Origin: Vicinamibacterales bacterium
GTDB taxonomy: Bacteria > Acidobacteriota > Vicinamibacteria > Vicinamibacterales > UBA823
Direction: 5' to 3'
Assembly (NCBI GenBank): GCA_965197385.1
Contig: CBDANA010000007.1
Location: 68,054-132,053 of the forward strand
Length of the DNA: 64,000 nt
The notes below the pieces were generated by a model that was not told the DNA's origin, searched no databases, and worked only from the letters and a program-made list of their open reading frames with translations. Positions 17,163-53,489 of this stretch are shown here, piece after piece (position 1 is the first letter of the stretch; the number at the start of each line of letters is the position of its first letter). The position numbers and the translations under genes are program-made.

Positions 17163-18356
17163 ATGGCAATTGCTGTAGCCTTAGCTGAAGGAGTCGTTGC
17201 GATGCTGTCTAAACCTCTTGCCCTCGGCGCCCTGGTCCTGGCCGCACTGGTTGCGGTGGGCACAGGCGCCTACCTAGGCGTTCGCCAGAACGATGCCAAT
17301 CTGCAGTTTGCGGCGAAGGTCAGCCCGGAGCGCCCAGCCGATGACGAAACGGCCGAGCCGCTGGCCATCGTCGAAGAAACGGAAACGGTGATCGACGAGT
17401 CCCCGGTGGAGATCGAACCGAAACCGGCCGCGCCTGTGGCGAGGGCCGAGCCGGCGCCGCCGGCCGTTGCCGTGTCAGAACCGGAACCGCTCCCGGCTGA
17501 GCCAGTCGAACCGGCCCCGTCGGTTGCGGTGCCGGCACCGAGACCCGAACTAGTTCAAGCACCAGTCGAAGCCCCAGTCGAGGCAATCGACCGGGGCTTC
17601 GAGGTCGACCAAATTTTCGAAGAAGACGAGATCGGCGGCGTAGCCTCCGTCGAGCCGATTTCCAGCCCGGCGCCGGCGGACGACGCGAACCCGTGGCGGC
17701 AACTCGAGGCGCCGTGGCCCTCTGATGACGATGATGATGATACTGATGCCGGGACCGTCGTCCAGCGAGCGCCGGCTGACACCGATGCCCCGTGGTCGAA
17801 CGTGGCGGACGGCGCCGAACCGGAGCTGCGGTTCGACGAGCTCGTCGTCGCCGCCGATTCGGTGATCGGCCTGCAAATCGAGACACGTGTGAGCAGCGAG
17901 GATGCGCGCGTCGAGGATTCGGTCGACGCCCGGGTGACGCGCGATGTCCTGGTCGACGACCGGGTCGCCGTGCCCGCGGGCGCTCGGCTGCATGGCTCGG
18001 TCGTGCTGGTCGAGCGCGGCGGCCGGATGAGCAAGGGGGCGAGAATCGGCGTCCGGTTCCACACGCTGGTGATGGCGGACAGCACCGAATTGGCGATCGT
18101 CACCGAGACGATCTACCGCGAGGGTGAGGGCCAGGGCGGCCGAAGAGCCAAGGCGATCGGCGGGGCGGCGGTGACTGGCGCCATTCTCGGCGCCATCTTC
18201 GGCGGCAGGCGCGGTGCCGTCCTCGGCGGAAGCGTGGGCGCCGCCGGGAGCACGGCGGGCGTCATAACCGGCGACCGGAACCGCACGACGCTGCTGCCCG
18301 GCATGACGTTCACGATGCGTCTGCTACAGCCTGTCACCGTGCTCGTCGATTGGTAG
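17163..18356 (+). CDS. membrane-anchored hypothetical protein with Pro/Glu-rich linker and C-terminal beta domain plus glycine-zipper segment
   Basis: N-terminal TM helix (LALGALVLAALVAVGTGAYL), a PE/PA-rich linker and a DDDDDD run. The C-terminal region is loosely reminiscent of TrbI/VirB10-type beta domains. A GxxxG-rich stretch follows (GGAAVTGAILGAIFGGRRGAVLGGSVGAAG). An alternative start is at 17202. Confidence 0.6.
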   Translation: MAIAVALAEGVVAMLSKPLALGALVLAALVAVGTGAYLGVRQNDANLQFAAKVSPERPADDETAEPLAIVEETETVIDESPVEIEPKPAAPVARAEPAPPAVAVSEPEPLPAEPVEPAPSVAVPAPRPELVQAPVEAPVEAIDRGFEVDQIFEEDEIGGVASVEPISSPAPADDANPWRQLEAPWPSDDDDDDTDAGTVVQRAPADTDAPWSNVADGAEPELRFDELVVAADSVIGLQIETRVSSEDARVEDSVDARVTRDVLVDDRVAVPAGARLHGSVVLVERGGRMSKGARIGVRFHTLVMADSTELAIVTETIYREGEGQGGRRAKAIGGAAVTGAILGAIFGGRRGAVLGGSVGAAGSTAGVITGDRNRTTLLPGMTFTMRLLQPVTVLVDW

Positions 18357-18385
18357 TGACCTGCCCCCCAGGGTTGTGCCACTGC

Positions 18386-18698
18386 TTATGAGAGAGCTGG
18401 ACTCATTTCTGAGCTCCCAAGCGCTGCCGGCATGATCGCGTCCGGGGCCGGTGGGCGGTAGCCCCGCGCACGGTGCGGCCGCACCGTGTTGTCCTGCCGC
18501 CGCCATCGCTCGATCAAGATCCTGGCTTCCGTCAGGGGATAGAAGATCTCACGGTCCAGGAGTTCGTCGCGGAACTGGCCGTTAAACGATTCGATGTACC
18601 CATTCTCCCATGGGCTCCCCGGCTCGATGAACAGCGTCTGCACCTGTAGGGCCGCGAGCCAGAGTCGGATGAGCTCGGCCGTGAACTCCGGGCCGTTG
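18386..18698 (-). pseudogene. IS3-family transposase, C-terminal (integrase-core) fragment
   Basis: DNGPEFTAELIRLWLAALQVQTLFIEPGSPWENGYIESFNGQFRDELLDREIFY...RWRRQDNTVRPH is the classic rve-domain C-terminus. Confidence 0.88.
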
Positions 18699-18784
18699 TC
18701 GAGGATATGGAGATGACAGGAAGGGCGCCCTCACCCCATCTCCGCATAGTCTCCGTGCAATCACGACAAAGCAGGGAGGCCAGC

Positions 18785-20041
18785 ATGAGACAGGATGAGA
18801 GGCACCACACGTTGGACGACATCTTCGTGGGCATCGATCTGGCGACCCGTCAGCACCAGGTGGTCGTCCTCGATGGGCAGGGACACCGCCTCACGAGCTT
18901 CAAGGTTTCGCATTCTCGAGAGGGGCTGCGCGAGCTCGTGGAGCGCTGCTCGGCCCGTCGAGTCGGCCGGGGACGAGGTACGGTGCACTTCGCGTTCGAG
19001 GCCACCGGACACGTGTGGGAGGCGGTTGGTGCATTCTTTGAGCAGCGCGCGCTTCGGTATCACGTCGTCAATCCGCTCGCGACCTTCCGGGTGCGCGAGG
19101 CTCGGCAGATGGGACGCGACAAGCGAGACCTGACCGACGCAGAGCAGATCGCGCAGCTGCTGCGCACGGGGGTCGTGACCAAGTGCCAGCTCTTGCCCGC
19201 TCGATACATGCAACTGCGGCGAGCCTGGGGCGAGTATCAGCGTCTACGCTGCGAGCGCGCCCGCCTCAAGACCCTGCTCGTGCATCAGCTCTACGGCGTG
19301 TTTCCGGAAATCGTCGGCGAGTGGAAAACCGTCACGGCGCCTGGGTGCCTCGCGGTGCTGCGGGCGGGCTTGCCCCCGCAGGACATCGCGATGCTGACGA
19401 AGCCGGCCTTCATCCGAGTCGTGCAAGAGCACCGGCGGGGACGGCGGATGTGGCGCTTCAAGATTGAGCAAGTCTGGGAGAAGGCCGGGAGGACGGTGGC
19501 GGCGCTCCATGGGCATGAGGCCGCCATGCGTGAAGTGACTCGGCTGGTCGAGCGTCTCGACTTCGTCGGCGACCAACTCGATCGCGTCGCGGGCGAGCTC
19601 CAGACCGACCTCGAGGGGTTTGAGGAGCCGACGTATCTCGCGCCGTTGCCGGGGACCGGGTGGGTCACGATCGCCGGGCTACTCGCCGAGATCGGCCCCT
19701 TTCACCGATTCCGGCACGGCCGGCAGTTAGTGAAGCTCGCCGGCCTGCAGCCGTCGAGACGGGAAAGCGGCCAGCACGCGGGCCGCACGCCGATCAGCAA
19801 GCGCGGCCGGGCGCAGCTGCGCGCCGTGGTCTACATGGCCACGCTGTCGTCCATACGCCATACCCGGCGCCTGAGAGCCCACTACGAGCGCCTCACGCAG
19901 CGCGTCACGCGGCCCCTGCCCCCCATGCAAGCGATCGGGGCCTGCATGACCAAGCTGCTGCACTACGCGTTCGCCGTCGTCCACAACCAAACGGCGTTCG
20001 ACGTCAACCACGTGTGGAGGGATGATCCGATCGCCGCCTAG
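18785..20041 (+). CDS. IS110-family transposase/recombinase (element A; short 5' end, long 3' tail, IS1111-like layout)
   Basis: FVGIDLA...FEATGHVW...DLTDAEQIA DEDD-type N-domain, with C-terminal LPGTGWVTIAGLLAEIG...SGQHAGRTPISKRGRAQLR. The ATG at 18785 is preceded by AGGGAGG. Confidence 0.9.
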   Translation: MRQDERHHTLDDIFVGIDLATRQHQVVVLDGQGHRLTSFKVSHSREGLRELVERCSARRVGRGRGTVHFAFEATGHVWEAVGAFFEQRALRYHVVNPLATFRVREARQMGRDKRDLTDAEQIAQLLRTGVVTKCQLLPARYMQLRRAWGEYQRLRCERARLKTLLVHQLYGVFPEIVGEWKTVTAPGCLAVLRAGLPPQDIAMLTKPAFIRVVQEHRRGRRMWRFKIEQVWEKAGRTVAALHGHEAAMREVTRLVERLDFVGDQLDRVAGELQTDLEGFEEPTYLAPLPGTGWVTIAGLLAEIGPFHRFRHGRQLVKLAGLQPSRRESGQHAGRTPISKRGRAQLRAVVYMATLSSIRHTRRLRAHYERLTQRVTRPLPPMQAIGACMTKLLHYAFAVVHNQTAFDVNHVWRDDPIAA

Positions 20042-20274
20042 AGACCTGAGGCTCCGGCTCCGGCCGGAGAGGAGGCCATGCCGACCGTTGTCCTGCGCCC
20101 TTCGAGTCGAAGACAGCTCGACGCCCGTCCGCCAGGCACCCTCCGCTCCTCGGGTATGAGTCCGGATGACGCACGATGGGCCGGCTCCAGCGAGCCCGTG
20201 CCCGTATCTGTCCCTCGATTGGACAGCCCAACGGCGCCGAGAGCCTTGACGCCCCTATATGTCAAGACGGTCGT
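20042..20274. ncRNA. candidate IS110/IS1111-type non-coding RNA (bridge/seek RNA) region; also holds the junction of the two elements
   Basis: This 233-bp tract between two convergent recombinase genes has no credible ORF. It contains GC-rich palindromes such as CTCCGGCCGGAG. The assignment rests on the known family architecture only. Confidence 0.3.
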
Positions 20275-21360
20275 TCAGGCCGCCAAGTCTGCGGCTTGGC
20301 GCGCTCGGTAGTCTGCCATCACGCGCTGAAAGATCTCGCGGGCGAGAAAGCGTTTAAGACAGCGGATGATCTCCCGTTTGGGCCGCCCTTCAGCGGTGCG
20401 TCGTTCGACGTAGTTGAGGGTTGGTGTGTGGAACCGCATCCGCACGATGACGGCCCGGTGGAGCGCGGCGTTGGCCTGGCGATGACCGCCGCGGTAGAGG
20501 CGGTGGCGCCCCGTCGTCATCCCGGACGAAGCCGGGATGGGGCAGGCCCCGCAAAGCTTGGCGAAGGCGGCTTCAGAATGAATCCGATCGGGGGTGTCGC
20601 CAAAGATGATCAGCAGTTCGGCGGCGGTGTCGGCACCGATGCCGAAGCCCTCACGCAGCGTCGGTGAGGTCTGGGTGGTGAGTCGACTCACGTGACGGTC
20701 GTGGTCCACGATTTCGACGGAGAGAGCGAACCAGCGACGGGCGAGCGCCCGGAGGGTATGTTTCGCCGAGGCGGTCGGCGTATCGATCGTGCCGCAGCGC
20801 CATCCGCGGCAGCGTTTGAGGAGCGCCTGGTCGGCGAGCGGGTTGAGGGTCTCTCGCAGCGCGGGCGGCGCGGTGACGACGATCTGCTTCAGCGTGATCA
20901 TCGCCGAGGTGCGGGCTTTGACCGCCGTCCGGCGCGCGACTTTGAGGTGGCGCATCATCTCGACCGCTCCGTCCGCGGTCTTCGGGATGGCGGTCGATTG
21001 GCCCGCCAGAACCGACCGCGCGGCGGTCTCGGCATCCACGGGGTCGGACTTCCCGGCGATTCGACGTGTGCGCCGGTCGCCTCGGTTCACTTCGAGCACC
21101 TGGTGCCCGGCTCGCCGGACCGCGCGAGTGAGTCCCGCCCCGTAGCTGCCGGTGCCCTCGATGCCGAACGCGGCGATGCGGCCGTGACGCTCGGCCCAGG
21201 TGATCAGCTGTTGGTAGCCGTCTGAGTCGGCGGCACACGATCGATCGTCGAGGCGGACCCCCCTCGTGTCGATCGCCACGGCCACGTGGACGTGCTTGTG
21301 GGTGTCCACGCCGACGATCACCTTCCGCGCGTCAGGCTGGATAGTCCTGTGGTTCGTCAC
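20275..21360 (-). CDS. IS110-family transposase/recombinase (element B; long 5' non-coding end, IS110-like layout)
   Basis: VIVGVDTHKHVHVAVAID...FGIEGTGSYGAGL...KSDPVDAE N-domain, with C-terminal SSGMTTGRHRLYRGGHRQANAALH. The GTG start is preceded by GAGGAGG. Confidence 0.9.
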   Translation of the reverse strand: MTNHRTIQPDARKVIVGVDTHKHVHVAVAIDTRGVRLDDRSCAADSDGYQQLITWAERHGRIAAFGIEGTGSYGAGLTRAVRRAGHQVLEVNRGDRRTRRIAGKSDPVDAETAARSVLAGQSTAIPKTADGAVEMMRHLKVARRTAVKARTSAMITLKQIVVTAPPALRETLNPLADQALLKRCRGWRCGTIDTPTASAKHTLRALARRWFALSVEIVDHDRHVSRLTTQTSPTLREGFGIGADTAAELLIIFGDTPDRIHSEAAFAKLCGACPIPASSGMTTGRHRLYRGGHRQANAALHRAVIVRMRFHTPTLNYVERRTAEGRPKREIIRCLKRFLAREIFQRVMADYRARQAADLAA

Positions 21361-21636
21361 CGGGTGGCCTCCTCGGGTGCTGGTGCGTCGGCCGGATGGG
21401 CGGACAGGACTGTGATGGGTCGACGTTGCAGCAGGCCCCTATTGGGTCACGGCCCATCCGGTCAGACGGGTTGCCGTGTCAATCGCCGACGGACGATGAC
21501 CGACAGTTCAGTAGCCAGGACCGTAGGTCAGTCAACTTGTGGGTCAGGCCAGCGCCCACCGGCACCCACCGGTGTCACTGAGCAACCCCGACAGGCAGGG
21601 GAATCATGCTCACAGACAACTTGGTCATAGCACGCG
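21361..21636 (-). ncRNA. candidate bridge-RNA-encoding left end of IS110 element B
   Basis: 276-bp non-coding tract between the recombinase start and the IS3 junction. It contains a perfect 10-bp long-range pairing, CCGGATGGGC (21392..21401) with GCCCATCCGG (21452..21461). Confidence 0.35.
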
Positions 21637-22462
21637 GACCGCAGGTGCGCCGGGACGCCGTGGGTGACGAAACGCTGGGCCAGCGTCTCGAGTACCTCCA
21701 TCGATCGCACCCACCGGGCGACCACGATTGCCAAGCATTCCCGCGAATACTCCTCGACGATGGTGAGGATCTTCAGCGGCCGGCCGGCCTGCGTCCGGTC
21801 CGCCACGAAGTCATACGCCCAGACGTGGTGGCGATACGCGGGGCGGCGGCGAATGCACGAGCCATCCGCGAGCCACCGCCGGCCCCGGTTCGGCTGTTGC
21901 TGCGGCACTTTCAGCCCCTGCTCGTCGCCACAGCCGCTCCACGCGCTTGTGATGCACCGCCCACCCGTCCCCACGTAAGCGCCCGGTGATGCGCCGAGAG
22001 CCATACCGCCCATCCCGCGTCGCCAATGCGATCATCCGAGCCCCCAGGCGCGGCTCGTCCACCGGCACCATGGCCTGATCCCGAGGGGTCGACCGCGCGT
22101 GGCCGATCACGCGACACGCCCGCCTCTCCGACACGCGCAACTGGCGGCGGACGTGCGCCCCCGCCTGCCGGCGTCGGGGCGGGCTCAGAAGTTTCCCGAG
22201 GGCACCTCTTTGAGAATCGCGTGGTCGAGCGCCTGGTCCCCACCAGCTTCTTCAGCTGGGTATTCTCTCGCTCGAGGGCCTGCAGCCGCTTGGCCTGGTC
22301 GAGCCGCAAGCCGCCGTATTCCTTCCGCCCCCGAGAGTACGTCTGCTCGCTGATCCCGAGCGTCTTACAAACCTGCGGCGTCCGCAGGCCTCGGCCCAGC
22401 TCCACTGCCGCCTGCCGAAGCTTCGTGATGATCTGTGCCGTGCTGGACCGCTTTCTGGGCAT
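21637..22462 (-). pseudogene. IS3-family transposase, OrfA and N-terminal OrfB fragment, multiply frameshifted
   Basis: MPRKRSSTAQIITKLRQAAVELG...ISEQTYSRGRKEYGGLRLDQAKRLQALERENTQLKKLV is the OrfA HTH/leucine zipper. OrfB pieces (RVSERRACRVIGHARST; LKVPQQQPNRGRRWLADGS...VWAYDFV...ECLAIVV) lie in three frames, which implies at least two non-programmed frameshifts. Confidence 0.85.
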
Positions 22463-22558
22463 CTTGCCGCCTGCTGCAGCGCCCGAATGCTAACGCTCGG
22501 GCTGGTTCAGTTCCAGGGGGCAAGGTCACTAGCCGGGAGGTCAGGAACCCGTCTCCCG

Positions 22559-23023
22559 TCAGTCTTCGACGATGTCTGCCGTGATCGCAATCTTTATACA
22601 GCCGCGCACGCTGGTCGCGGCGGGGCACTTGCTCTCGTGCGTCGCGAGCGCCCGCTCAGCGGCAGCCCGGGTCCCGGCCGGGATCTTCAAGGCGTAGCGC
22701 ACCCGGATCTCCGTGATCCGCAGCACGCGGTCCACGGCCGCGATGTCGCCTTCCACGGCGGCCGTCAGGCGGCCGCCCTCGGATGGAATCTGGCGCACCT
22801 CCAGTGCGCCGGCGAGGGTGCCGAGCAGTCAACCACCGACGGCGGCAATGATGTGGTCGAGCGTCGCCGGCAGGTCCTCCTCCGGCTCCACGCCGTAGAA
22901 ACGCTTGATTCCACCATGGACGCCGAAGCGAATCGGCGTCTCGAAACTCTCGATGTACGCGTGACGGATGGGCCCCTTGATTTTTTCCAGCCGTATCCGA
23001 CTGGTGTGGATAATTTCAGCCAC
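22559..23023 (-). CDS. OsmC/Ohr-family peroxiredoxin-like protein interrupted by one in-frame UGA (candidate selenocysteine codon; alternatively a nonsense pseudogene)
   Basis: ORFs 22829..23023 and 22559..22798 share a frame and are separated only by the TGA at 22829..22831. Together they give 154 codons, a full OsmC length. The motif is IIAAVGG-[UGA]-LLGTLAGAL, and the second conserved Cys is in HESKCPAATSV. The GTG start is preceded by AGGAGGG. Confidence 0.6.
22776..22818 (-). promoter_or_regulatory. SECIS-like stem-loop downstream of the in-frame UGA
   Basis: In the mRNA sense: CCCUCG-CC-GGCGCAC-UGGAG-GUGCGCC-AGAUUCCAUC-CGAGGG. The upper stem is 7 perfect bp (22792..22810) and starts 18 nt after the UGA. 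The apical loop contains GG. Confidence 0.4.
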
Positions 23024-23053
23024 AGCACCCTCCTAGCGCTATAATTCTGCGCC

Positions 23054-23236
23054 ATGCGAACCCCACACGTCACACATTTGTTGATCCCGGCGCTCGTCCT
23101 CGTGGCCACCACTGCCGTCAGTGCGCAGGAACTGACGAAGGACGGCTGGGATGTCGAGCGGGCGACGGCGGAAGCGGAAGCGATCGGCCTGCGGTCGCCG
23201 GTCCTGAAGGAGTTCGCGCTCGACTTTGTCCGATAG
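23054..23236 (+). CDS. small signal-peptide ORF, possibly the N-terminal remnant of a secreted hydrolase
   Basis: 60 aa starting MRTPHVTHLLIPALVLVATTAVSAQE. A perfect TATAAT sits at 23040..23045, 8 nt before the ATG, giving a leaderless-type layout. No family recognised. Confidence 0.25.
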   Translation: MRTPHVTHLLIPALVLVATTAVSAQELTKDGWDVERATAEAEAIGLRSPVLKEFALDFVR

Positions 23237-23282
23237 CCGCCGGAACGCAGCACCGTCTGGCACCGGCGCGCCGCTCGGTGAC

Positions 23283-24719
23283 ATGGACGCCGAGTCGTTT
23301 CGGCGTCACGGACGACGCGCGCTCGAGTGGATCGCCGGATACCTCGAGCATTCCGAACGCTATCCCGTCCTGTCGCGGGTCTCGCCCGGGGAGGTGCGAT
23401 CGCAGCTCCCCGCCAGCCCGCCTGAACAGGGCGAGTCGCTCGACGCGATTCTCGATGACTTCGAGCAGATCATCGCGCCCGGCTTGACCCACTGGAACCA
23501 CCCCGGCTTCTTCGCCTATTTCGCCATCTCCGGCAGCGCGCCCGGGGTGATTGGCGAGTTTCTGACCGCGACCCTCAACGTGCAGGCGATGCTCTGGCGG
23601 ACCTCACCCGCGGCGACGGAATTGGAGGAGCTGACGCTCGACTGGCTGCGACAGCTCGTCGGCCTGCCCGAGGGATTCGACGGGGTGATCTACGACACCG
23701 CGTCGGTGTCCACGCTTCACGCGCTGGCCGCCGCGCGCGAAGTGGCGCTGCCGGACGTTCGTGACCAGGGGCTCGTGGGACGCAGCGAACTGTCCGGCGT
23801 CCGGGTCTATGCCTCGGAGCACACCCACTCGTCGATCGAGAAGTCGGTGATGCTGCTCGGTCTGGGCCGGCGCGCGCTCCGGTGCATTCCAGCCGACGCG
23901 GAGTATCGCATGCGGCCCGACGCACTGGCGGCCGCCGTTGCGGAAGACCGGGCGGCCGGACTCGTGCCGATCGCCGCCGTCGCCACGGTCGGCACCACCT
24001 CCTCGACGAGCGTCGATCCGGTGCCGGCCATCGCGCGGATCTGCAACGCCGAGGGGATCTGGCTGCACGTCGACGCCGCCTACGCCGGCGTCGCCGCCAT
24101 GGTGCCGGAGTGCGCCCACGTGCTCGACGGCTGCGAGCGCGCCGATTCGGTCGTCATCAACCCGCACAAGTGGCTGTTCACGCCGTTCGACCTCAGCGCG
24201 CTGTTCTCGACGCGCATGGACGCCGTGCGGTCCGTGTTCGCCTTGACGCCGGAATACCTCCGGACCTCAGACGCCGGCCAGGTCAGGAACCTGATGGACA
24301 CCGGCATTCAGCTCGGCCGCCGGTTTCGGGCGCTGAAACTGTGGATGGTGCTTCGCCACTTCGGCGCCGAGGGCCTCCGACGGCGGCTGGCCGAGCACAT
24401 GCGCCTGGCTCGGCTATTCGCGGGCTGGGTGGATGCCGACGCTGATTTCGAACGCCTCGCGCCCGTCCCGTTCAGCGTCGTCTGCTTTCGGGCCAAGCCG
24501 ACCGGCCGCTCCTGGAGCGAAGCTGACCTGGAGCGCTTGAACGCGTCGATCATCGACGCGCTGAATGCCTCGGGTGACGTGTTTCTCGGACATACGAAAT
24601 TAGACGACCGGTATGCGATCCGCCTGGCCATCGGGCACATTCGTACGACCCAGCGGCACGTCACACACGCCTGGGAGCTGGTGCGGCAGCACACACGCGC
24701 GTTGACCGAACGCCAATAA
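23283..24719 (+). CDS. pyridoxal-dependent (group II) aromatic-L-amino-acid/L-tryptophan decarboxylase family
   Basis: THWNHPGFFAYF, TSSTSVDP and the PLP-lysine motif NPHKWLFTPFD. The start is set at the ATG (MDAESFRRHG...) rather than the upstream TTG. Confidence 0.9.
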   Translation: MDAESFRRHGRRALEWIAGYLEHSERYPVLSRVSPGEVRSQLPASPPEQGESLDAILDDFEQIIAPGLTHWNHPGFFAYFAISGSAPGVIGEFLTATLNVQAMLWRTSPAATELEELTLDWLRQLVGLPEGFDGVIYDTASVSTLHALAAAREVALPDVRDQGLVGRSELSGVRVYASEHTHSSIEKSVMLLGLGRRALRCIPADAEYRMRPDALAAAVAEDRAAGLVPIAAVATVGTTSSTSVDPVPAIARICNAEGIWLHVDAAYAGVAAMVPECAHVLDGCERADSVVINPHKWLFTPFDLSALFSTRMDAVRSVFALTPEYLRTSDAGQVRNLMDTGIQLGRRFRALKLWMVLRHFGAEGLRRRLAEHMRLARLFAGWVDADADFERLAPVPFSVVCFRAKPTGRSWSEADLERLNASIIDALNASGDVFLGHTKLDDRYAIRLAIGHIRTTQRHVTHAWELVRQHTRALTERQ

Positions 24720-40508: not shown

Positions 40509-41732
40509 CTAGCGTGTGAAGCCGAGCAGCTCGTCTCCTTTGACCGACTCGCCCAGGTAGTGCCGCAGCAGTACGCGCGACGCCAGGAATCCCTGCGCCA
40601 GCCCGTTGCCACCGAAGCCGAGCGCAAAAAGATGACGCGGGTAGTTGCGGTGCGGCCCCACGTAGGGCAGGCCGTCGGCCGTGCCGACCGAGGGTCCGGT
40701 CCAGGCATACTCCGGCTGGATGCCGGAGATGACGGGATACAGCACCGACAGTTCGTACATCAGCTGGCCGGTACGCTGCACGAGCGTCTTCTCGCGCCGC
40801 TGCCGATGGGGTGGCGGCTGATCGCCGCCGCCGAAGATGATCCGGTCGTCGCGTGTCCACCGCAGGTAGTGGTACGGGTCAGCGGTATCCCACAGCATGG
40901 CCCGGCGCCGCCCGAGCTCGGCGCGAATCCTGGCGCCCAGCGGCGGCGTGGCAACGGCGTAGGTGTCGAAGGCACGGAAATGCCGTGCCAGCGGCTTGAG
41001 CAGCGCACCCGGATGTCCGGTCGCGATCACGACGTGGTCCGCCGCGACCGTGCTGCCAGCCGTCCGCAGCTCGACCGTCGAACGCCCAACCGCGATCCGA
41101 TCCACCGGCGACCGCTCGAACACCGCCGCGCCGCGCTTGACGGCAGCCGTCGCCAGGCCCAGGCAGGCGCGGAACGGGTCGATCTGGGTGTTGCCTGCCA
41201 TCCGGATAGCACCCTCGGCACGCAGGTTCGTCTCTCGACGCATCTGCTCGGCCGTCAGCCAGCGGACGTCGAGACCGGCCTTCCGCCGCGCGTCGTACTC
41301 GCGGCGCAGCCGCTTCACCGTGTTCGGATCGGTCGTGAAGTAGATCGAGTCCTGCGCCTCGAGCTGACACTGAATCTTGAGCCGGCGCAGCATCGCGCCC
41401 AGATCGAGCGCCGCGCGGCGCGTCATCTGCCAGACGGCCCGGGCGGCGCGCAACCCGTGCGCGGCCAGCAGCGGCTGGAAGTCGACCTCCGGCTCCTGCA
41501 TCACCAGCGCCGTGCTCGAGCCGATCGCGCCCTGTCCCACCTGCGTCGCCTCGAGCAGCGCGACCCGGGCGCCGGCCGCAGACAGGGCGTAGGCCGTCGC
41601 ACACCCGGCCATTCCGCCGCCCACGATCGCGACCTCGACCTCGAGGCGGCCACGCTGTCTCGGATAGGCCGTGCGGCGGCGCCGCGGCAGGCGATCAACC
41701 CAGTACGACAGGCCGTAACGGATCTTCGGCAT
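40509..41732 (-). CDS. FAD-dependent oxidoreductase (DAO family)
   Basis: VAIVGGGMAGCATAYALSAAGARVALLE dinucleotide fold; about 400 aa with the DAO-like layout. Confidence 0.85.
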   Translation of the reverse strand: MPKIRYGLSYWVDRLPRRRRTAYPRQRGRLEVEVAIVGGGMAGCATAYALSAAGARVALLEATQVGQGAIGSSTALVMQEPEVDFQPLLAAHGLRAARAVWQMTRRAALDLGAMLRRLKIQCQLEAQDSIYFTTDPNTVKRLRREYDARRKAGLDVRWLTAEQMRRETNLRAEGAIRMAGNTQIDPFRACLGLATAAVKRGAAVFERSPVDRIAVGRSTVELRTAGSTVAADHVVIATGHPGALLKPLARHFRAFDTYAVATPPLGARIRAELGRRRAMLWDTADPYHYLRWTRDDRIIFGGGDQPPPHRQRREKTLVQRTGQLMYELSVLYPVISGIQPEYAWTGPSVGTADGLPYVGPHRNYPRHLFALGFGGNGLAQGFLASRVLLRHYLGESVKGDELLGFTR

Positions 41733-41809
41733 TGGCGTCAGCAGTTCATTGTATATGCGAACCAGCTGGCCCGGTGACCGGCGCTATACTGGTGGCGGGC
41801 CCCATTCAC

Positions 41810-42730
41810 ATGCACGTGCCGTGGTCGACCGGGATCGGGCAAGCCCTCACCGGGCTGTCGATGGGGTGTGCCGTCTCGATCGCCGGGAGCGGCTTAGCAG
41901 CCCAGGAAGACCGACCGTTACCGGACGCCGAGTCGTTCCTGAAAGAGGTGCGGGCGAATCTCCAGCTCGACAACGACATCCTCGACGGCTACACCTACCT
42001 CGAACGCCGCACCGACGCCGACATCGGCTTCTTCGGCGGCGTGGGCACCAAGCCCCCGAAGCTCTATCGTGTCTACCGATCCCGCGAGGTCGACATGTTC
42101 TACCGGCGACTGCTCGAAGTGGATGGTGAGCCGATCAGCGACGAGGAGCTCATCCTGCAAGATCGCCGGCACCGGGCGGAGCAGTTCAAGGCGGCGCGCG
42201 AGCGGGCGCGCGAGAGCGAAAAAGATCGCGCCAAGCGTCTCAACAAGGCGGCCGAAGCGGCAAAAGAACGCCGCGACATGATGACGGAGGTCCTGGGACT
42301 GTTCGACTACCGGCTCGAACACCGGGAGCAGCTCGATGGTCGACCGACGATCGTCGTCAGCTTCACGCCGCGCGCCAACGTCGATCCGAAGACCCGGCCG
42401 GGCAAGATCCTCGCGAAGTCGGCGGGACGAGCCTGGGTGGCCGAGGACGACCGTCAGATGATCCGGGTCGAGGCCAAGGCAACAAGCGACATCACGATCG
42501 GCTTCGGCCTCATCGCCCGGCTGCACAAGGGCAGCCGTATTGACGTCAGACGCACGCAGGTCCGCAACCACTGGCTCCCGGCCGGCTTCGACTTCACCGG
42601 CAGCGGGCGGACGCTCCTCTTCCGGACGTTCCAGGTCGACGTCAACGCCGCCTATTCCGACTACGAGCCGTTCACGGCCGACATGCTGCCCTACGAGCCG
42701 GTCGACGCGAGGGAGACACAATCGCGGTGA
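41810..42730 (+). CDS. secreted hypothetical protein (distant paralog of 47328..48182)
   Basis: The start is set at MHVPWSTGIGQALTGLSMGCAVSIAGSGLAAQ (signal peptide). It shares ordered motifs with 47328..48182 (EVDGEP, GRPT-V, GR-W-, W-P). Confidence 0.6.
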   Translation: MHVPWSTGIGQALTGLSMGCAVSIAGSGLAAQEDRPLPDAESFLKEVRANLQLDNDILDGYTYLERRTDADIGFFGGVGTKPPKLYRVYRSREVDMFYRRLLEVDGEPISDEELILQDRRHRAEQFKAARERARESEKDRAKRLNKAAEAAKERRDMMTEVLGLFDYRLEHREQLDGRPTIVVSFTPRANVDPKTRPGKILAKSAGRAWVAEDDRQMIRVEAKATSDITIGFGLIARLHKGSRIDVRRTQVRNHWLPAGFDFTGSGRTLLFRTFQVDVNAAYSDYEPFTADMLPYEPVDARETQSR

Positions 42731-42778: not shown

Positions 42779-44944
42779 TCAGCGCTCGAGAATCTCGATC
42801 GTCTCGATCACAGCCCCTTCGAGGATCGCATCCACGGCGTCCATGCCGCGCGTGACCCGCGCGAACACCGTGTAGTTGTGGTCGAGACGAGGATTATCAG
42901 CGAGGTCGATGAAGATCTGCGCATCCCCGGTGTCGCGGCCGCGCGTGGAGATGCCGACGGAGCCGCGCAGGTGCGGGCGCAGGCTGAGCTCGTCGCGCAT
43001 GTAGGGGCCGTCTCCCATGAACTCGTTGGCGCCCGGGCTGCCGCCCTGGATGACGAAGTTCGGGACGACCCGATGAAACGTGAGACCATCGTAGTAGCCG
43101 TCGCGCGCGAGGCGCGCGAAGCGGGCCACGGTGGCGGGCGTCTCTTCAGGGAATAGGTCCATCTCGAACACCGAGCCGCTTGCCATCCGAACGCGCGCGC
43201 CAGTCAGACCGAGGAGCGCGGCGAGCGACGGCGCGGCTCCCGACCGCATGCGCTCGGTCACCGCTTCAGCCGGACGTCCGGTCCACTCGGTCAGCGCCGC
43301 GGCAGCGGCGGCGGCCACGCGTGGATCGACATCTTCCAGATACGACCGAAGAACGCCGGCGTTGCGGCGGGAGCCGAGCTCCCGGAGCCGCGTGAGAATC
43401 GCCACGCGCGGATCTCGCGACGTATCGCGATCGGCTTCGGTGAGTCGGGCCAGGACGGCGAGTAGCACCGTCGGGGCGCGCCGATCGGGGCTGCCCTCGA
43501 GTAACCCGGCGACCGAGCGGAGCAGGCCGTAATCATCACTGGCCATCGCCTCGAGGAGCTGCCCGTCGGCGGCGTGCCCTTCGATCTCCACGAGGCCGTG
43601 CAGTGCGGCCGCTCGGACGTTGGCGTTCGGATCATCGGCCAGCGCGTGCAGCGCCTCGACGGCAGGGTCGCCCAGCGCGCCGGCCGCCCGGGCCGCGTAC
43701 ATACGAGCCTGCCAGACTAGGTGGTCGACGAACCGCGACAGGAGCGTCGCAGCTCGATCGGGGTCGAGCCGGGCCAAGGCCACAATCGCGTGGGCTGGCC
43801 GATGCCAGTCGTCGCCGCCATCGGATCCGGCATCCACGAACCGCCCGGCCGCCCGCGCCACGAGGCTGGCCGCTGACGCGCCGTCCCGACAACCCGCACC
43901 GAGCAGATCCATCGCCCGCAAAGCGACGTGCGCGTTTGAATCGTCTCCGGCCGAGACCAGTGGAGCGCAGCTCTGCACCCGGCCGTACTCCGCGAATGCT
44001 CCCAGTGCGTCATAGCGGACCATCGGCGACTCGTCCGCCAGCGCTCGGCCGATGAGCGCGTCACGCGCGTCGATCTCGTCGGCGTCACGTAGGGCCAGCA
44101 CCGCCAATCGGCGCACCTGTGGATCGTTGTCGTCGAGCGCGGCGCCCACGGTCGCCTGGTCCGCACCGCCGCTGGCGATCAGGGCCGACAACGCCAGCCG
44201 CCGCGTCCGCCCGGCCACCTCTCCCGTCCCCGGTGCACGCGCAGCCGCCCGTAGGCGCTCGAGCGTCTCGGCAGTCAAGGGCCCTCGCTCACGCTGCAGA
44301 CGAGCCAGCGATTCCAAGCCGTTGACCGCGCCCAACCGAACCTCCAGCTCAGCCGCATCCGTCAGACTCGCCAGCGCGGCTTCGACCTCGTGCACCCTGT
44401 CCGTATCCTGATACGGCAGTCGGCCGAGCGTCTCGGCGACGACACCGCGCACGTAGGGATCGGCCTCGGCGTCAGCGCCGTCTGCGTCTTCAAGGCGTCC
44501 GATCAGCGTCGTGACGTGCGCCCCGAGCTCACCGCCGCGCTGCACGCTCTGGCCGAGCGCGTTCACCGCCTCGGCCCTGACTGCCCGTGGGGCGTCGTCG
44601 ATGAGCTGGACAATGCGGTCGCTCAGGTCGGCGCGCTCGAGGCGGCCGAGTGCCCGGACGGCCAGACGGCGAATCTCCGGGTCAGGGCTCTCGAGGCCGG
44701 CCAGCAGCGTCGCGAGGCCGGCCGGATCCGCCCCGCGAGAATCCTCCGCTTCGAACATCGACTGACGGAACGCCAGGTCGCCCCCGCCGCCGGCCGACTG
44801 CCGCTGTACAACCGAGGAAACGGACAGGCCGCCGGCAATAGAGACGACAGACGCGACGGAGACGATGAGGGTTAGGGCCGCCGTCACGGGCGCGCAGAAC
44901 TTACGCGCGCATTGCGATACGTCGCGTCGAACCAGGGGCATCAT
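42779..44944 (-). CDS. membrane-anchored HEAT-repeat protein fused to a C-terminal cyclophilin-type peptidyl-prolyl isomerase
   Basis: The start is MMPLVRRD... at 44944, followed by a TM helix (VTAALTLIVSVASVVSIAG). Repeated D/E-P-x-V-R-x-x-A HEAT-like units follow. The C-terminus is FHRVVPNFVIQGGSPG...TVFARVTRGMDAVDAI (cyclophilin). Confidence 0.85.
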   Translation of the reverse strand: MMPLVRRDVSQCARKFCAPVTAALTLIVSVASVVSIAGGLSVSSVVQRQSAGGGGDLAFRQSMFEAEDSRGADPAGLATLLAGLESPDPEIRRLAVRALGRLERADLSDRIVQLIDDAPRAVRAEAVNALGQSVQRGGELGAHVTTLIGRLEDADGADAEADPYVRGVVAETLGRLPYQDTDRVHEVEAALASLTDAAELEVRLGAVNGLESLARLQRERGPLTAETLERLRAAARAPGTGEVAGRTRRLALSALIASGGADQATVGAALDDNDPQVRRLAVLALRDADEIDARDALIGRALADESPMVRYDALGAFAEYGRVQSCAPLVSAGDDSNAHVALRAMDLLGAGCRDGASAASLVARAAGRFVDAGSDGGDDWHRPAHAIVALARLDPDRAATLLSRFVDHLVWQARMYAARAAGALGDPAVEALHALADDPNANVRAAALHGLVEIEGHAADGQLLEAMASDDYGLLRSVAGLLEGSPDRRAPTVLLAVLARLTEADRDTSRDPRVAILTRLRELGSRRNAGVLRSYLEDVDPRVAAAAAAALTEWTGRPAEAVTERMRSGAAPSLAALLGLTGARVRMASGSVFEMDLFPEETPATVARFARLARDGYYDGLTFHRVVPNFVIQGGSPGANEFMGDGPYMRDELSLRPHLRGSVGISTRGRDTGDAQIFIDLADNPRLDHNYTVFARVTRGMDAVDAILEGAVIETIEILER

Positions 44945-44970
44945 CGGCGGAGGCTCCGCGGCGCGCCGTC

Positions 44971-46998
44971 TCACGGCTGGAGGTTGCCAGAGTAGTCGAG
45001 CATCTGCGTCATGAGGTCCTGCGGATAGGAAATGGTCACGTCCGTGATCGTGCCGTCGGCGGCCCGCACCGCGTCGAGCGTCGGCTGGACGAAGCCAGAG
45101 TACGAGGGTAGGTTCAGCACGTCCACACGCTCGACCACCTGGTCGCGCAGCACCGGATCGAAGTGAATACCGTACGACTCGAACAACTGCTTCGCAGCGT
45201 CGTAGTCTCCTTCCGACTTGATCCGCTGCACGTCCGCGAGCAGCCGGCCAACGCCCTCCCTGAACGCTGCGACGTCGGTCATGACGTAGAAGGTCTTGCC
45301 GTCGCGATTGCGCTCCTCGATCGCGCTGGTGTTGTCCATCAGCCAGTGCACGATCATCTGACGGTTGCGCATGTGGTCTTCTTCGAGCTGCGAACCCTCG
45401 CGGACCCGGCGCAGCTGGACGAGGGCGTTGCGGGCGTAGCCCTCGTACTCGGCCAGCACGATGTCCGCGTGGCTCTCGGCTGGCACGACTCCAAGCTCGA
45501 CGAGCTTGGGGTCCGGCAGGAAGTACAGCGCCACCAGATCGGCGCGACCCTCCTCGAGCGCCGAGTACTGCTCCTGCAGTGCCGCCTGCGGGTTGCCGCC
45601 CAGATGGTCGGCCAGTTGGCCCGACGCATGTCCGATCACCTCGTGCATATTGGTCGTGAGCTCCCCGGCGAGGGTGCTCCAGCGCTCGGCCCGGGCGACC
45701 TCCTCCGGGGTCCACGCGAACTCGGTGCGGAAGCCGGACGGCGTCGAGCGGTCGTAGGCCTCCACGACGTTCGACAACGAGATCGACTTGCTCCCGTGCT
45801 GCTCGCGAACACTCTGGTCGTTGGGAAGGTTGATGCCGACCGGCGACACCGGCCCGGACTCACCCGTCTCGATCACCACGTCGATCGCGTTGGCCGTGAT
45901 CCCGCGCACGCCGTCTTTGCGGTACTTCGGATCCCATGGCATCCGGTCCTCGAACCACTGCGCGCTGGCGGCCAGCGACTGGATCCCCTCGGTCTTCACC
46001 GGGTTCACGTAGTAGACGAGCGCCTCCCACGCTCCCTTCGCGCCGCGCGCGTCCATATAGACCTCGATGAAACCGTTGATTGTGTCCACGGGCGACGCGG
46101 TGTCCTGCACCCAGGCGATGTCGTAGGCCTCCCGGTCGGCATCCTCGCCCGTCCGGTAGAAGCGAGCCAATGCCTCCAGCGCCTTGGCCATCGGCTCGGT
46201 GGCGTAGGGAATCGCGGCTTCCAGGTGGCTCACGATCTCCGCAATCGGCTCGCCGTACTTGCCATCGATCGAGTACACCTCCTCAACGAGCCGGCCGTCG
46301 CGCTTCACCAGGCGCGAGTTGAGCGCGTACTGCTCCGTAAAGCCCTCGAGATCGGCCATCGTCACGTCGACATAGAGGTTGTTGGCGCTCGCGGCGAGCA
46401 TGTCCTCATCCGGGCCTGGCGTCTTGGTCGTCACGCTCGGGTCCACCGACGCGTCGAAGAACAGCGGCTCCATCCGCGCGAGCATCGCGTCGAGCGTCTC
46501 GTCGCCGCGTGTCGGAAACACGGCGCCCGCATCGGCTGCCTGCCTCGCCGCGGCGGCGAACGCCTCCGGCGGGCCGGTCAGCACGAATTTGCGCGCCGTC
46601 AAGTTGTTATAGGGACCGGTATTGATCCAGAACAGCTTGGTGTAGCGTTCAATCTCGCGTCGTGTCGCGGCCTCCACACCATCGGCATGCGTGAGGATCT
46701 GCTCGAGCACCTCGCGCATCTCAAGATTGTGCGCGTAGCGCTGATCGTAGAAGATGTCCCGCCCGGCCAACGCGGCGCGATACAAATGATACACGAGGGT
46801 CTTCTGGTCCAACGGCAGCGCCTCGAAGCCGTCGGCGTACAGCTGCACGACCGCTGCTTCGCCCACCCGCTCGAGCAGGTACTTCCGCTCGGTGGCCGTC
46901 TCCGTCCCGGCAACCGCTGGGCCATCGTCCGCCGGCTCGCCCCCACCCGGTCCGCATGCCACCGCCCCGCCCACCGCCAATCCGAGCATAGTCATCAT
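44971..46998 (-). CDS. M49 (dipeptidyl-peptidase III) family metallopeptidase lipoprotein
   Basis: HEVIGH zinc motif plus a second EEGRAD motif. The start is set at MMTMLGLAVGGAVAC (lipobox) and is preceded by GAGGAG. Confidence 0.85.
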   Translation of the reverse strand: MMTMLGLAVGGAVACGPGGGEPADDGPAVAGTETATERKYLLERVGEAAVVQLYADGFEALPLDQKTLVYHLYRAALAGRDIFYDQRYAHNLEMREVLEQILTHADGVEAATRREIERYTKLFWINTGPYNNLTARKFVLTGPPEAFAAAARQAADAGAVFPTRGDETLDAMLARMEPLFFDASVDPSVTTKTPGPDEDMLAASANNLYVDVTMADLEGFTEQYALNSRLVKRDGRLVEEVYSIDGKYGEPIAEIVSHLEAAIPYATEPMAKALEALARFYRTGEDADREAYDIAWVQDTASPVDTINGFIEVYMDARGAKGAWEALVYYVNPVKTEGIQSLAASAQWFEDRMPWDPKYRKDGVRGITANAIDVVIETGESGPVSPVGINLPNDQSVREQHGSKSISLSNVVEAYDRSTPSGFRTEFAWTPEEVARAERWSTLAGELTTNMHEVIGHASGQLADHLGGNPQAALQEQYSALEEGRADLVALYFLPDPKLVELGVVPAESHADIVLAEYEGYARNALVQLRRVREGSQLEEDHMRNRQMIVHWLMDNTSAIEERNRDGKTFYVMTDVAAFREGVGRLLADVQRIKSEGDYDAAKQLFESYGIHFDPVLRDQVVERVDVLNLPSYSGFVQPTLDAVRAADGTITDVTISYPQDLMTQMLDYSGNLQP

Positions 46999-47029
46999 CG
47001 CTCCTCGCGTGAACGTCGCCTGCCGCCCT

Positions 47030-47309
47030 CTAGGCGCCCGTCCGAGTATTCGCGTAGACCGCGTTGTGAGCGCCGTGGGGCCAAATGCGAGGCGCGCCGA
47101 CGAGGCGATGCCCCGGCGCATCGTCGAGGAGGCGCAACGCAGCAGATGGCCCAACGCCGCCGCAACCCGAAGGGCACGTGGGGGTTGCGGCCGCATCCAG
47201 CGTCGCCCGTCGTCGCCGATGCACACCGGCATCGACTCGCCGCGCTTCTTGTCTGCAGCTCGCAAGACCCACGCGCACGGCCCACGCGAATACTCGGACG
47301 GGCACCTAG
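47030..47309. mobile_element. MITE-like / paired-REP element, 280 bp, with 26-nt terminal inverted repeats
   Basis: CTAGGCGCCCGTCCGAGTATTCGCGT at the left end, and the reverse complement of ACGCGAATACTCGGACGGGCACCTAG at the right end (1 mismatch). The left 51 nt recur at 3899..3949. TA or CTAG is present at both outer edges. Confidence 0.5.
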
Positions 47310-47327
47310 TATTCGGATCCATGGCTC

Positions 47328-48182
47328 TCATCGCGGCATGCTCACCGATTCCTCGGTCTGCACGTCAAACTGCCTGAAGTTCAAATAGGTGGCCCTCGCC
47401 TCGATCGTGTCGGCCGCCTGGTCCCGGGGCTGCTCGTAGAGTTCGTGCATGAACTCGGGCACCCACAAATTCAGCGAAGCATCCTCCTGATAGTCGACGG
47501 AGATCGTCGTGCGCACATCGCTGTGACGGGAGCCGAGAATCAGCTCACTCCGCAGTGTCTCGCCGCTTTCGACATCCAGCCAGAACCTGCCGCGTGAGAA
47601 CACGTCAACACCTGCCATCTGCACGAATGTCGGCCGCGCTTGCTCGCTGTACTCGATCACCCAGGTCGGGCGGCCGTGCAGCACTTCCTCGCCGACATGC
47701 TCGAAGAAGAACCGGTGCTGGTTCAACGTGTGGAGAAACGCGAGGGCCACGGTCGGCAGATTGACGGTGCGCACCACGCGGCCGATGTTGTAGCGGGCGC
47801 TCTCCCTGGCGATCGTAATGGCCTGCTCGAACGCGGGCCGCGTCTCGGCGAGAAACAACTCCTGCAGCCGTGCGTCGCGGTCACGTACCGGTTCGCCGTC
47901 CACCTCGAAGACGTCGCGGAAGCCAAGCCAGGCCGTGGCACCCGGCAGCTGCACCAGCAGCATGTCGGAGCGAAGACGCCGCTCGACCTTCGCTTCCCCT
48001 CCGGGCGACACGATCCGTTGGACGTACTGCTCCTCGACGACGGCATTCGAGAGCACCTGCTCGTACGCCACGACCGACTCGTTGGCCCGGAACAGCAGCT
48101 CGCCGAGCGTTAAGGTCGGCGTCTGCGCCATCGCCGTGGCCACCGCCCACGCAACGGCGAAGCCCGTCAGCAAAGCTTTCAT
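47328..48182 (-). CDS. secreted hypothetical protein (distant paralog of 41810..42730)
   Basis: Signal peptide MKALLTGFAVAWAVATAMAQ. Motifs FEVDGEPVRDRD, HGRPTWVIEY, GRFWLDVESG and LWVPEF parallel the other copy. Confidence 0.65.
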   Translation of the reverse strand: MKALLTGFAVAWAVATAMAQTPTLTLGELLFRANESVVAYEQVLSNAVVEEQYVQRIVSPGGEAKVERRLRSDMLLVQLPGATAWLGFRDVFEVDGEPVRDRDARLQELFLAETRPAFEQAITIARESARYNIGRVVRTVNLPTVALAFLHTLNQHRFFFEHVGEEVLHGRPTWVIEYSEQARPTFVQMAGVDVFSRGRFWLDVESGETLRSELILGSRHSDVRTTISVDYQEDASLNLWVPEFMHELYEQPRDQAADTIEARATYLNFRQFDVQTEESVSMPR

Positions 48183-51950: not shown

Positions 51951-52421
51951 CTAGACCTTGCTCCGGCGGAGTCGCGCTCGAGCGGCCGCGGCCGCCTCGG
52001 CCACGTGCGCTCGATATCCGTCGATCGACAGCGCGCCGGGGCCCGCAAAAATCAGGCAGCACAGCGCAGCCATCAGCACAAGCGCATACTCGTAGCCGTG
52101 CTGCACGTCGGGCTCAAGCGCCAGGCTGAGAAAGAAGCCATTCGACCAGTGCACCTTCCAGATGGCCACCCCCTTGTCGATGACCAGCGGGATCGCGACG
52201 AGACGCGTAAACACGCCCAGGAACAGCGCGACGCCGCCCAGCAGCTCGACGACGCCGACGGCGAGCACTAAGATGAGCGCCGGCTGCAACCCGACGGCTT
52301 CGAACATGGCGGCAGTCCGGGCGGGGCTGGCGCCCCAGATCGGCAAGAGTTTTGGGAGCCCGTGCGCAACGAACACCAGGCCGACGACTAGCCGCAGCAC
52401 CGTGATGCCCCACGCCTGCAT
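51951..52421 (-). CDS. DoxX family membrane protein
   Basis: 156 aa with 4 TM helices. LRLVVGLVFVAHGLPKL...ELLGGVALFLGVFTR is the DoxX pattern. Confidence 0.85.
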   Translation of the reverse strand: MQAWGITVLRLVVGLVFVAHGLPKLLPIWGASPARTAAMFEAVGLQPALILVLAVGVVELLGGVALFLGVFTRLVAIPLVIDKGVAIWKVHWSNGFFLSLALEPDVQHGYEYALVLMAALCCLIFAGPGALSIDGYRAHVAEAAAAARARLRRSKV

Positions 52422-52636
52422 TGCGCGCTCTCCTCCGCTCGCTCGGCGTCGTCGCGCGTGGTGTCAGACTACTCGAGCAGCATACGCGGCTCACCCAGCA
52501 CACGCGCGACGAACGTGCCAATTGTGCCACCGATTGGACTATACTTCGCGGAGATTTTCACCCCTCGTCGAGCGATTCCACCCGCGCGGCACTGGGGTTG
52601 AGAAGGGGCTCACCACTCAGCGATTCTTATTCATCA

Positions 52637-53341: not shown

Positions 53342-53354
53342 GCTCTGGGCTAGC
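53334..53354. repeat. heptamer block GGCTCTA GGCTCTG GGCTAGC spanning a TAG stop codon
   Basis: Same unit and same stop-codon register (cTAG|GCTCTGGGCT) as at the ALDH stop at 10829..10831. Confidence 0.6.
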
Positions 53355-53440
53355 TTGCGGGGTGGGCGCCTCGGCGGTCTCGGTGCCACGCTGGGTTTTC
53401 ACCACGGGCTGCTTTGCGCCGCCGGCTCCAGTTGCTGTTA

Positions 53441-53468
53441 GAGAAGCGAGAGCCAAGAGCCGAGAGAC
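53441..53468. repeat. inverted heptamer block GAGAAGC GAGAGCC AAGAGCC GAGAGAC
   Basis: Same family and orientation as 11178..11198. It lies 21 nt before the stop of the convergent thioesterase gene. Confidence 0.6.
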
Positions 53469-53489
53469 AGCGCACGCCGACCGCGCGCG

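Follow-up and report, generated by a model that had tools for sequence, protein, structure and literature searches.

An in-frame UGA at the catalytic cysteine position of an OsmC-like gene raises the question of whether the gene is dead or whether the UGA encodes selenocysteine (Sec). We addressed this question at a locus of a Vicinamibacterales bacterium (GenBank assembly GCA_965197385.1, contig CBDANA010000007.1). The window, that is, the whole analysed stretch of 64,000 nucleotides (contig positions 68,054 to 132,053, renumbered here from 1), carries such a gene on its minus strand, and an initial annotation had read it as a Sec-containing OsmC rather than a dead gene. Our comparative sequence analysis strongly favors the same answer. 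It is very likely that the locus is an intact gene for an OsmC-like peroxidase in which the catalytic Cys is replaced by UGA-encoded Sec. The evidence that carries this reading is the conservation of the TGA codon, the pairing between homologs with Sec and homologs with Cys, the conservation of the protein on both sides of the UGA, and a covarying hairpin downstream.

Organization of the gene

The two same-frame minus-strand open reading frames (ORFs) described earlier, 22829..23023 and 22559..22798, were re-read from the sequence and are parted by one TGA (22831..22829). The joined product is 154 amino acids long, with the context IIAAVGG-UGA-LLGTLAGAL around the stop. Besides the TGA at codon 65, the gene has no further stop or frameshift. 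The gene and its parts are as follows.

22559..23023, minus strand: candidate selenoprotein gene of predicted OsmC fold, with Sec65, Cys133, and Cys142 (154 codons plus stop in a single frame, Pfam OsmC match, ortholog collinearity)
23023..23021, minus strand: start codon GTG (sequence)
23029..23034, minus strand: Shine-Dalgarno-like AGGAGG, 5 nt upstream of the GTG (sequence)
22829..22831, minus strand: in-frame UGA, codon 65, probably read as Sec, at the first conserved (peroxidatic) Cys position (ortholog and profile alignments)
22811..22828, minus strand: 18-nt spacer from the UGA to the hairpin (synonymous sites constrained)
22792..22810, minus strand: putative hairpin of the Sec insertion sequence (SECIS) type, 7-bp stem GGCGCAC/GUGCGCC with loop UGGAG (pairing, covariation, and synonymous constraint)
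22625..22627, minus strand: Cys133 codon TGC in KCPAA, putative resolving cysteine (invariant in the family; aligns with GCPV)
22598..22600, minus strand: Cys142 codon TGT in VRGCI, third cysteine (Cys in 80 of 80 clade genes)
22561..22559, minus strand: terminal stop TGA (sequence)

The UGA column in homologs

If the UGA stands for Sec, which residue do homologs have at this position? A protein search covered 5.8 billion proteins, and the first 101 matches were aligned. Among these matches, the UGA column is occupied by Cys in 37 full-length homologs and by Trp in seven. The Cys-type homologs are single proteins of 152–157 residues which cover both halves of the window gene. All 29 N-terminal fragments end exactly one residue ahead of the column, and 25 C-terminal fragments begin 1–16 residues past it. 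The Trp forms, judged from the one of the seven that was checked, are UGA codons translated under another code: the contig of P0006 (L082) has TGA, and its deposited protein is not obtained under translation table 11. A HMMER pass of the 64-residue N-terminal ORF against 1.84 billion cluster representatives gave 421 matches. Among the best 150 of these, 94 end exactly at the column, seven read through with Cys, and one reads through with Trp. In homologs without TGA, Cys is the sole residue at the column, and TGG-encoded Trp was never found. The initial annotation had placed the UGA at a conserved Cys, which agrees with the 37 Cys forms, with the 29 N-terminal fragments that stop there, and with the profile alignment to Cys59 of Escherichia coli OsmC described below.

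We then compared the codon itself at the nucleotide level. Scanning of 185,579 species genomes yielded 80 loci from 80 species, 61–81% identical to the window protein. Nearly all are metagenome-assembled genomes (MAGs) of Vicinamibacterales or Acidobacteriota, closed chromosomes among them (e.g., OZ244838.1, OZ252008.1, OZ242205.1, and OY282382.1), and one belongs to Acidimicrobiia. These orthologs are collinear with the window gene across all 154 codons, and codon 65 is TGA in every one of them (81 of 81 clade genes with the window gene). Another 80 loci came from a scan of metagenomes in which a divergent member served as the seed; they fall into at least four subgroups (AGVAG-U-LTGT, AATAG-U-MMGT, AAVAG-U-MTGT, and AAVGG-U-LTGT). 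TGA is at the column in 79 of them, and one lacks a recognisable motif. Over all divergent subgroups, 80 relatives of the TGA type have this codon. All five Cys-type control loci have TGC or TGT at the column. A sequencing error of TGC or TGT, the alternative for which inspection of reads had been suggested, is excluded by TGA at this codon in 160 independent sequences. One ortholog (L042, Vicinamibacterales MAG, contig CBDAMZ010000009.1) has an additional in-frame TAG at codon 21, a Gln/His position; a pseudogene or an error of long-read assembly is the probable explanation.

Conservation continues past the UGA. Within the 80-species clade, the part ahead of the UGA has a mean pairwise amino acid identity of 78%, and the part behind it has one of 74%. 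Both Cys133 and Cys142 are invariant in this clade, and Cys133 is also invariant in the family alignments. This conservation points to purifying selection on both halves of the gene. The third cysteine, Cys142, sits nine residues past the Cys of the CP motif in 80 of 80 clade genes. It is common in other UGA-type clades and not present in most Cys-type homologs.

A conserved hairpin downstream of the UGA

Bacterial Sec decoding would call for a hairpin just 3′ of the UGA, and one had been proposed 18 nt past the TGA. It is present there as described: GGCGCAC (22810..22804) and GUGCGCC (22798..22792) form a perfect 7-bp stem around the loop UGGAG (22803..22799). The hairpin can also be drawn with 8 bp and a GGA triloop. 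The 31-nt hairpin has a folding energy of −14.5 kcal/mol (z = −2.31), and 5 of 200 shuffled sequences fold equally well. The z value is −0.71 for a 76-nt region and −0.95 when the hairpin is compared with other 34-nt windows of the same gene. We set the folding energy aside as main evidence and used comparative data instead.

Among 65 distinct sequences of the clade, the seven stem pairs are formed in 98.7% of the alignment cells. The basal pair 25-43 is C-G in 48, G-C in 12, and C-A in five of these sequences, and its switch alters the residues encoded by both arms (Gly/Arg by one, Gln/Asp/Glu by the other). Three stem pairs show wobble-preserving changes only. When divergent clades of the same register were added (91 distinct sequences), 94.5% of the cells remained paired, whereas sliding the 3′ arm by 1–3 nt reduced the pairing to 9–63%. 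In this larger set, 61 sequences have G-C and 21 have C-G at pair 26-42, and pair 30-38 is A-U in 73, G-C in 14, and G-U in four. The 5′ base of pair 30-38 falls on the third, synonymous position of an Ala codon (GCA/GCG), and its 3′ base decides between Val and Ala. The choice of the Ala codon tracks RNA pairing, not the protein. The loop starts with UGG in 91 of 91 sequences.

Codon usage gives the same picture. For residues with four- or six-fold degenerate codons, the codon entropy is 0.47 at codons 64–78 and 1.35 elsewhere (Mann-Whitney p = 1.9e-6). Rare codons are fixed, for example at Gly64 (GGT, 64/66) and Ala73 (GCA, 77/80), and the synonymous sites of the spacer are unusually constrained (CTG 79/80, CTC 69/80, GGC 74/80, and ACC 70/80). 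These comparative data indicate that the hairpin is highly non-random, although its energy alone is only mildly unusual. Retention of the hairpin in UGA-bearing orthologs, on which the initial annotation had made its proposal depend, is thus found together with compensatory switches. The 6-bp lower stem proposed as an extension (CCCUCG/CGAGGG, 22818..22813 with 22781..22776) is paired in 29.5% of the cells of 65 orthologs; it is not conserved and was dropped.

As a control, we inspected the hairpin region of the five Cys-type genes. The in-register stem carries 1–4 mismatches in 5/5, and the UGG is lost in 4/5. In one of them (L081), the UGG is lost although the peptide GALEVRQ is identical. 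These five genes are more distant than the closest Cys form (P0001), and the comparison is suggestive only. Other hairpins occur elsewhere in the family. The MMGT clade (L115–L166) has the hairpin CUGGCCR-CGNNGC-UGGCCRG at 15–34 nt past the UGA. It starts 15 nt past the U of the UGA, about 6 nt nearer than in the window clade, and no fewer than 36 of 39 sequences form each of its seven pairs. The small subgroups L112/L126/L128/L155 and L114/L116 have still other hairpin variants.

Protein family and fold

For scoring against family models, Cys was substituted for the codon-65 stop in the window protein. The Pfam OsmC model PF02566 matched residues 54–147 above threshold (41.5 bits; gathering cutoff 27.5). 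Scores for NCBIfam models were below their cutoffs: 17.8 bits for OsmC_like_Se NF041052 (cutoff 95), 14.4 bits for OsmC TIGR03562 (cutoff 85.8), and 16.2 bits for the SACOL1771 model TIGR03563 (cutoff 166). The Ohr model TIGR03561 gave no match. The similarity to NF041052 is weak and local, within the OsmC core (model positions 38–139). Eight relatives scored 12.6–27.2 bits or had no match with NF041052, and did not exceed 31 bits with any NCBIfam subfamily model tried.

A profile of 34 full-length Cys homologs matched Thermus thermophilus OsmC (1ukk, E = 1.5e-6) and E. coli OsmC (1qwi, E = 5.8e-5). In this alignment, the UGA column falls on the helix Cys of 1qwi (IGAAHAAC, Cys59) and on the corresponding Cys of 1ukk. 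The second-Cys motif HESKCPAATSV noted in the initial annotation is present, with Cys133 at 22627..22625, and its KCPA aligns with GCPV. Single-sequence alignment likewise placed the UGA column and KCPA on both OsmC Cys positions of 1ukk and 1qwi.

For P0001, the closest Cys homolog (69% identical to the window protein), the AlphaFold model has a pLDDT (predicted local distance difference test) of 96.1. Residue 65 is in helix 54–76 of this model, and residue 133 lies between helices 119–132 and 134–138. In a Foldseek search with the model, the best match in the PDB was the OsmC-like 2onf (E = 1.4e-10), with template modelling (TM) scores of 0.77–0.84. There were 63 PDB matches at E ≤ 1e-3, and 50 of 50 among the matches listed are of the OsmC/Ohr type. 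By structure, the nearest chains belong to uncharacterised OsmC-like proteins: 2onf (Ta0195), 1lql (MPN625), 2egt (AQ1549), and 1ml8. The uncharacterised OsmC-like proteins 2onf, 6mjn, 4mh4, and 1lql head the listed matches. Judged from the model of this Cys homolog, the window protein is predicted to have the OsmC fold.

Proposed mechanism

In OsmC/Ohr enzymes, the first cysteine (Cys59 in E. coli OsmC) is peroxidatic and the Cys of the CP motif is resolving. We propose that the UGA at codon 65 is recoded as Sec and that translation would run on to the true stop TGA at 22561..22559. The hairpin at 22810..22792, with its G-rich apical loop UGGAG, would serve as a bacterial SECIS. As in E. coli fdhF, it may recruit SelB-GTP-Sec-tRNA(Sec) as the UGA enters the A site. 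Sec65 would be located close to the N-terminal portion of the long central helix, at the site of the peroxidatic Cys of OsmC/Ohr proteins. It would attack the hydroperoxide to form a selenenic acid, which Cys133 of KCPA would resolve to a selenenylsulfide, and a thiol reductant would regenerate the enzyme. We infer the dependence on SelB, the incorporation of selenium, the peroxidase chemistry, and the identity of the reductant.

Sec machinery and the decoding of UGA

Can the genome decode Sec, and is UGA a stop elsewhere in it? Several observations weigh against a selenoprotein. Pfam scanning of the 30 ORFs of the window did not find selA, selB, or selD, consistent with the earlier caveat that no sel genes are in the window, and tRNA-Sec was found neither in the window nor in any of 166 fetched loci. 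A scan of about 1.9 Mb (loci plus window) for in-frame TGA followed by a GG-loop hairpin found no second selenoprotein gene; this SECIS-pattern scan gave one chance match. Rfam searches found no SECIS family, either at the gathering threshold over the whole window or at permissive settings over 22700..22900, with chance matches only. The folding energy of the hairpin is by itself unremarkable in a GC-rich gene (67% GC). The Cys-type controls are few (n = 5), and two of them retain a near-complete stem.

Sec users have been reported among Acidobacteria (PMC1794560, PMC12013277), one of them being Occallatibacter riparius (PMC12013277). A literature search on Sec use in Vicinamibacterales gave nothing specific.

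The UGA may alternatively be decoded as Trp, Cys, or Gly, either by a reassigned code or by hairpin-stimulated near-cognate read-through without selenium. Such decoding would fit the W at the column in some translated records (P0002, P0003, P0006) and the Sec machinery not being seen within the window. However, the terminal stops of the 81 clade genes are TAG in 39, TGA in 35 (window gene included), and TAA in seven, and 14 of the 27 Pfam-supported window genes end in TGA. Global reassignment of UGA is excluded by these counts. Since UGA is an ordinary stop in these genomes, the reading of codon 65 must be context-specific. The residue at the column in homologs without TGA, always Cys and never TGG-encoded Trp, also speaks against a standard amino acid, as do the position of the hairpin and its G-containing loop, which match bacterial SECIS elements. 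We consider this kind of decoding very improbable.

Genomic neighborhood

A second question is whether the gene is still functional in its present surroundings, which contain the following features.

23226..24719, plus strand: divergent pyridoxal phosphate-dependent decarboxylase gene sharing the promoter region (Pfam PF00282, E = 5e-97)
18357..22529, no strand assigned: insertion sequence (IS) cluster, the 3′ boundary of the gene and outside the selenoprotein system (Pfam and comparison with L120)
21528..22462, no strand assigned: truncated IS3-like element (Pfam)
20275..21360, minus strand: IS110-family transposase gene (Pfam)
18707..20041, plus strand: IS110-family transposase gene (Pfam)

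The decarboxylase gene is upstream of the selenoprotein gene in 67 of the 80 genomes (68% identical in tblastn). On the other side, the IS cluster begins 29 nt past the stop codon of the selenoprotein gene. In a 97% identical metagenome contig (L120), which has the same TGA, window position 22530 is joined directly to 18356. This junction indicates that 18357..22529 is a recent 4.2-kb insertion which left the gene intact.

In 55 of the 80 genomes, a protein of about 504 amino acids with DUF255 thioredoxin-like and N-acetylglucosamine-2-epimerase-like parts is encoded directly past the selenoprotein gene. Counted from the UGA, the DUF255 gene spans roughly +370 to +1900 in the genome loci L001–L080 (e.g., L031), and a transketolase-like gene comes after it. 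Neither gene is in the window, and the DUF255 gene is also not in L120. Since the IS-free L120 likewise has no DUF255 neighbor, the loss of the DUF255 gene predates the IS insertion. It is possible that the DUF255 protein is a dedicated redox partner of the OsmC selenoprotein.

The gene may be a selenoprotein gene by descent which is silent or non-functional here, with the Sec machinery lost or with expression or the 3′ context disturbed by the IS elements. The recent insertion just 3′ of the gene, the DUF255 gene missing from the window, and the sel genes not seen there could be taken in this sense. But the coding sequence, ribosome-binding site, UGA, and hairpin are all intact, and the gene shares 97% identity with L120, the relative free of the IS cluster. 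As L120 also has no DUF255 gene, that loss is older than the insertion, and the promoter region common with the divergent decarboxylase is untouched. A silent gene is, in our assessment, highly unlikely.

Less plausible still is a pseudogene produced by a TGC/TGT to TGA nonsense mutation in an ordinary Cys-type OsmC, perhaps tied to the nearby IS activity. The IS cluster 29 nt past the stop codon and the extra TAG of ortholog L042 could be cited for it, but the same codon is TGA in 160 independent sequences, among them the IS-free L120. Conservation is undiminished downstream of the UGA (74% vs 78%) with Cys133 and Cys142 invariant, and the window gene has no other stop or frameshift. We regard a pseudogene as extremely unlikely. 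Two small genes, a 64-residue N-terminal protein and a 79-residue OsmC-like C-terminal protein as in the separate halves of NCBI and JGI records, can practically be dismissed, for Cys-type homologs are one protein across both halves, the fold model needs both (strands 10–33 and helix 54–76), and the annotated C-terminal starts vary without conservation from 1 to 16 residues past the column.

Relation to known selenoproteins and public annotation

If the locus encodes an OsmC-like selenoprotein, is it of a known kind? The statement of the initial annotation that such proteins had been reported from metagenomes holds since 2005. Zhang et al. (2005; PMC1088965) reported three Sargasso Sea sequences of an 'OsmC-like protein' selenoprotein family (COG1765, motif UxxT), which later catalogues list as well (PMC9312934, PMC13188914). 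The Sargasso/Global Ocean Sampling (GOS) family resembles the window gene in its PF02566 fold, in Sec for the first redox Cys, in a bacterial SECIS downstream of the UGA, in its occurrence in environmental bacteria, and in having Cys-containing homologs. Compared by published description, its motif UxxT appears to differ from U-L-L-G-T here (U-L-T-G-T and U-M-M-G-T in relatives), in which the T is at +4 or +2 and not at +3. The Sargasso/GOS family is from marine plankton, whereas the window clade is mainly from soil and sediment Vicinamibacterales. Neither of the review representatives, MBR72571.1 and MCS5647933.1, turned up among the cluster members that were checked.

NF041052 (OsmC_like_Se) is a curated OsmC-related family with Sec members, to which the window protein has the weak core similarity described above. 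Because the window protein and its relatives miss the NF041052 cutoff widely, they belong to a subfamily distinct from that one. The OsmC (1qwi, 1nye, 1ukk) and Ohr enzymes have the fold and both redox positions in common with the window protein, but they use Cys, not Sec, their sequence identity to the window family is 10–20%, and the window protein misses the cutoffs of TIGR03562 and TIGR03561. The hairpin resembles the SECIS of the E. coli fdhF type in being a stem-loop that lies within the coding sequence and just 3′ of the UGA and that has a small G-bearing apical loop and a constrained position. It differs in its unrelated sequence, in the 18 nt to the stem, and in the second architecture inside the family.

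The OsmC-like selenoprotein is thus a known type, and its subfamily here is possibly uncatalogued. We tentatively suggest, at somewhat less than even odds for the reading as a whole, a distinct, uncatalogued, Sec-dominant OsmC-like subfamily. It would be marked by the N-terminal extension HTSRIRxEK...FGVHGGIKxFY. It would be the norm in Vicinamibacterales and several other uncultured lineages (about 94 Sec vs 7 Cys in the best 150 representatives). In most Vicinamibacterales, it would form a two-gene module with the DUF255 thioredoxin-like/six-hairpin protein as dedicated reductant. In one clade, its SECIS would have been rebuilt at another distance from the UGA.

Public annotation splits this subfamily, which is widespread in soil Acidobacteria, into two fragments. 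NCBI and JGI records are 'OsmC family proteins' of 85–93 residues and hypothetical proteins of 84–115 residues, and the JGI label for full-length homologs is 'uncharacterized OsmC-like protein'. The NCBI records HYU77818.1, HUE88312.1, HZU16857.1, and HLH70193.1, all named 'OsmC family protein', hold C-terminal halves only. The public records P0045, P0057, P0093, P0261, P0002, P0003, and P0006 give the C-terminal 85–93 residues, a hypothetical N-terminal part, or the UGA as Trp. In effect, the subfamily is unannotated. The position of the subfamily outside NF041052 explains why NCBI has only fragments. The Dormibacteraeota fragment HZU16857.1 begins right past the column, which suggests that Sec forms occur outside Acidobacteriota.

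With records that are fragmentary or have Trp for the UGA, current pipelines would fail to see an antioxidant selenoenzyme that is common among the abundant Acidobacteria of soil. A dedicated family model would repair hundreds of records. The gene implies Sec use by Vicinamibacterales, and their peroxide defence may therefore depend on the availability of selenium in soil. For SECIS rules, the family also offers clean natural data: about 160 sequences with two hairpin architectures, in which covariation takes precedence over the choice of amino acid. The understanding of the Sec decoding mechanism itself is unchanged; the gain is for annotation and for the selenium biology of Acidobacteria in soil.

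Other features of the window

The initial annotation had mentioned other window genes with in-frame stops. Our screen for further interrupted genes by third-position GC was uninformative, since at 67% GC antisense frames resemble coding sequence. Four long ORFs have no Pfam match at E ≤ 1e-5, namely 17163..18356 (plus), 41732..42730 (plus), 47328..48182 (minus), and 52162..53685 (plus); the high GC content may have produced some of them as antisense artefacts. Two minus-strand ORFs, 42779..45715 (HEAT repeats and cyclophilin) and 44971..47331 (peptidase M49), overlap by about 745 nt. The N-terminal extension of the HEAT/cyclophilin ORF is probably spurious, since its listed Pfam matches begin at residue 336. 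This overlapping pair may be what the mention of other genes with in-frame stops referred to.

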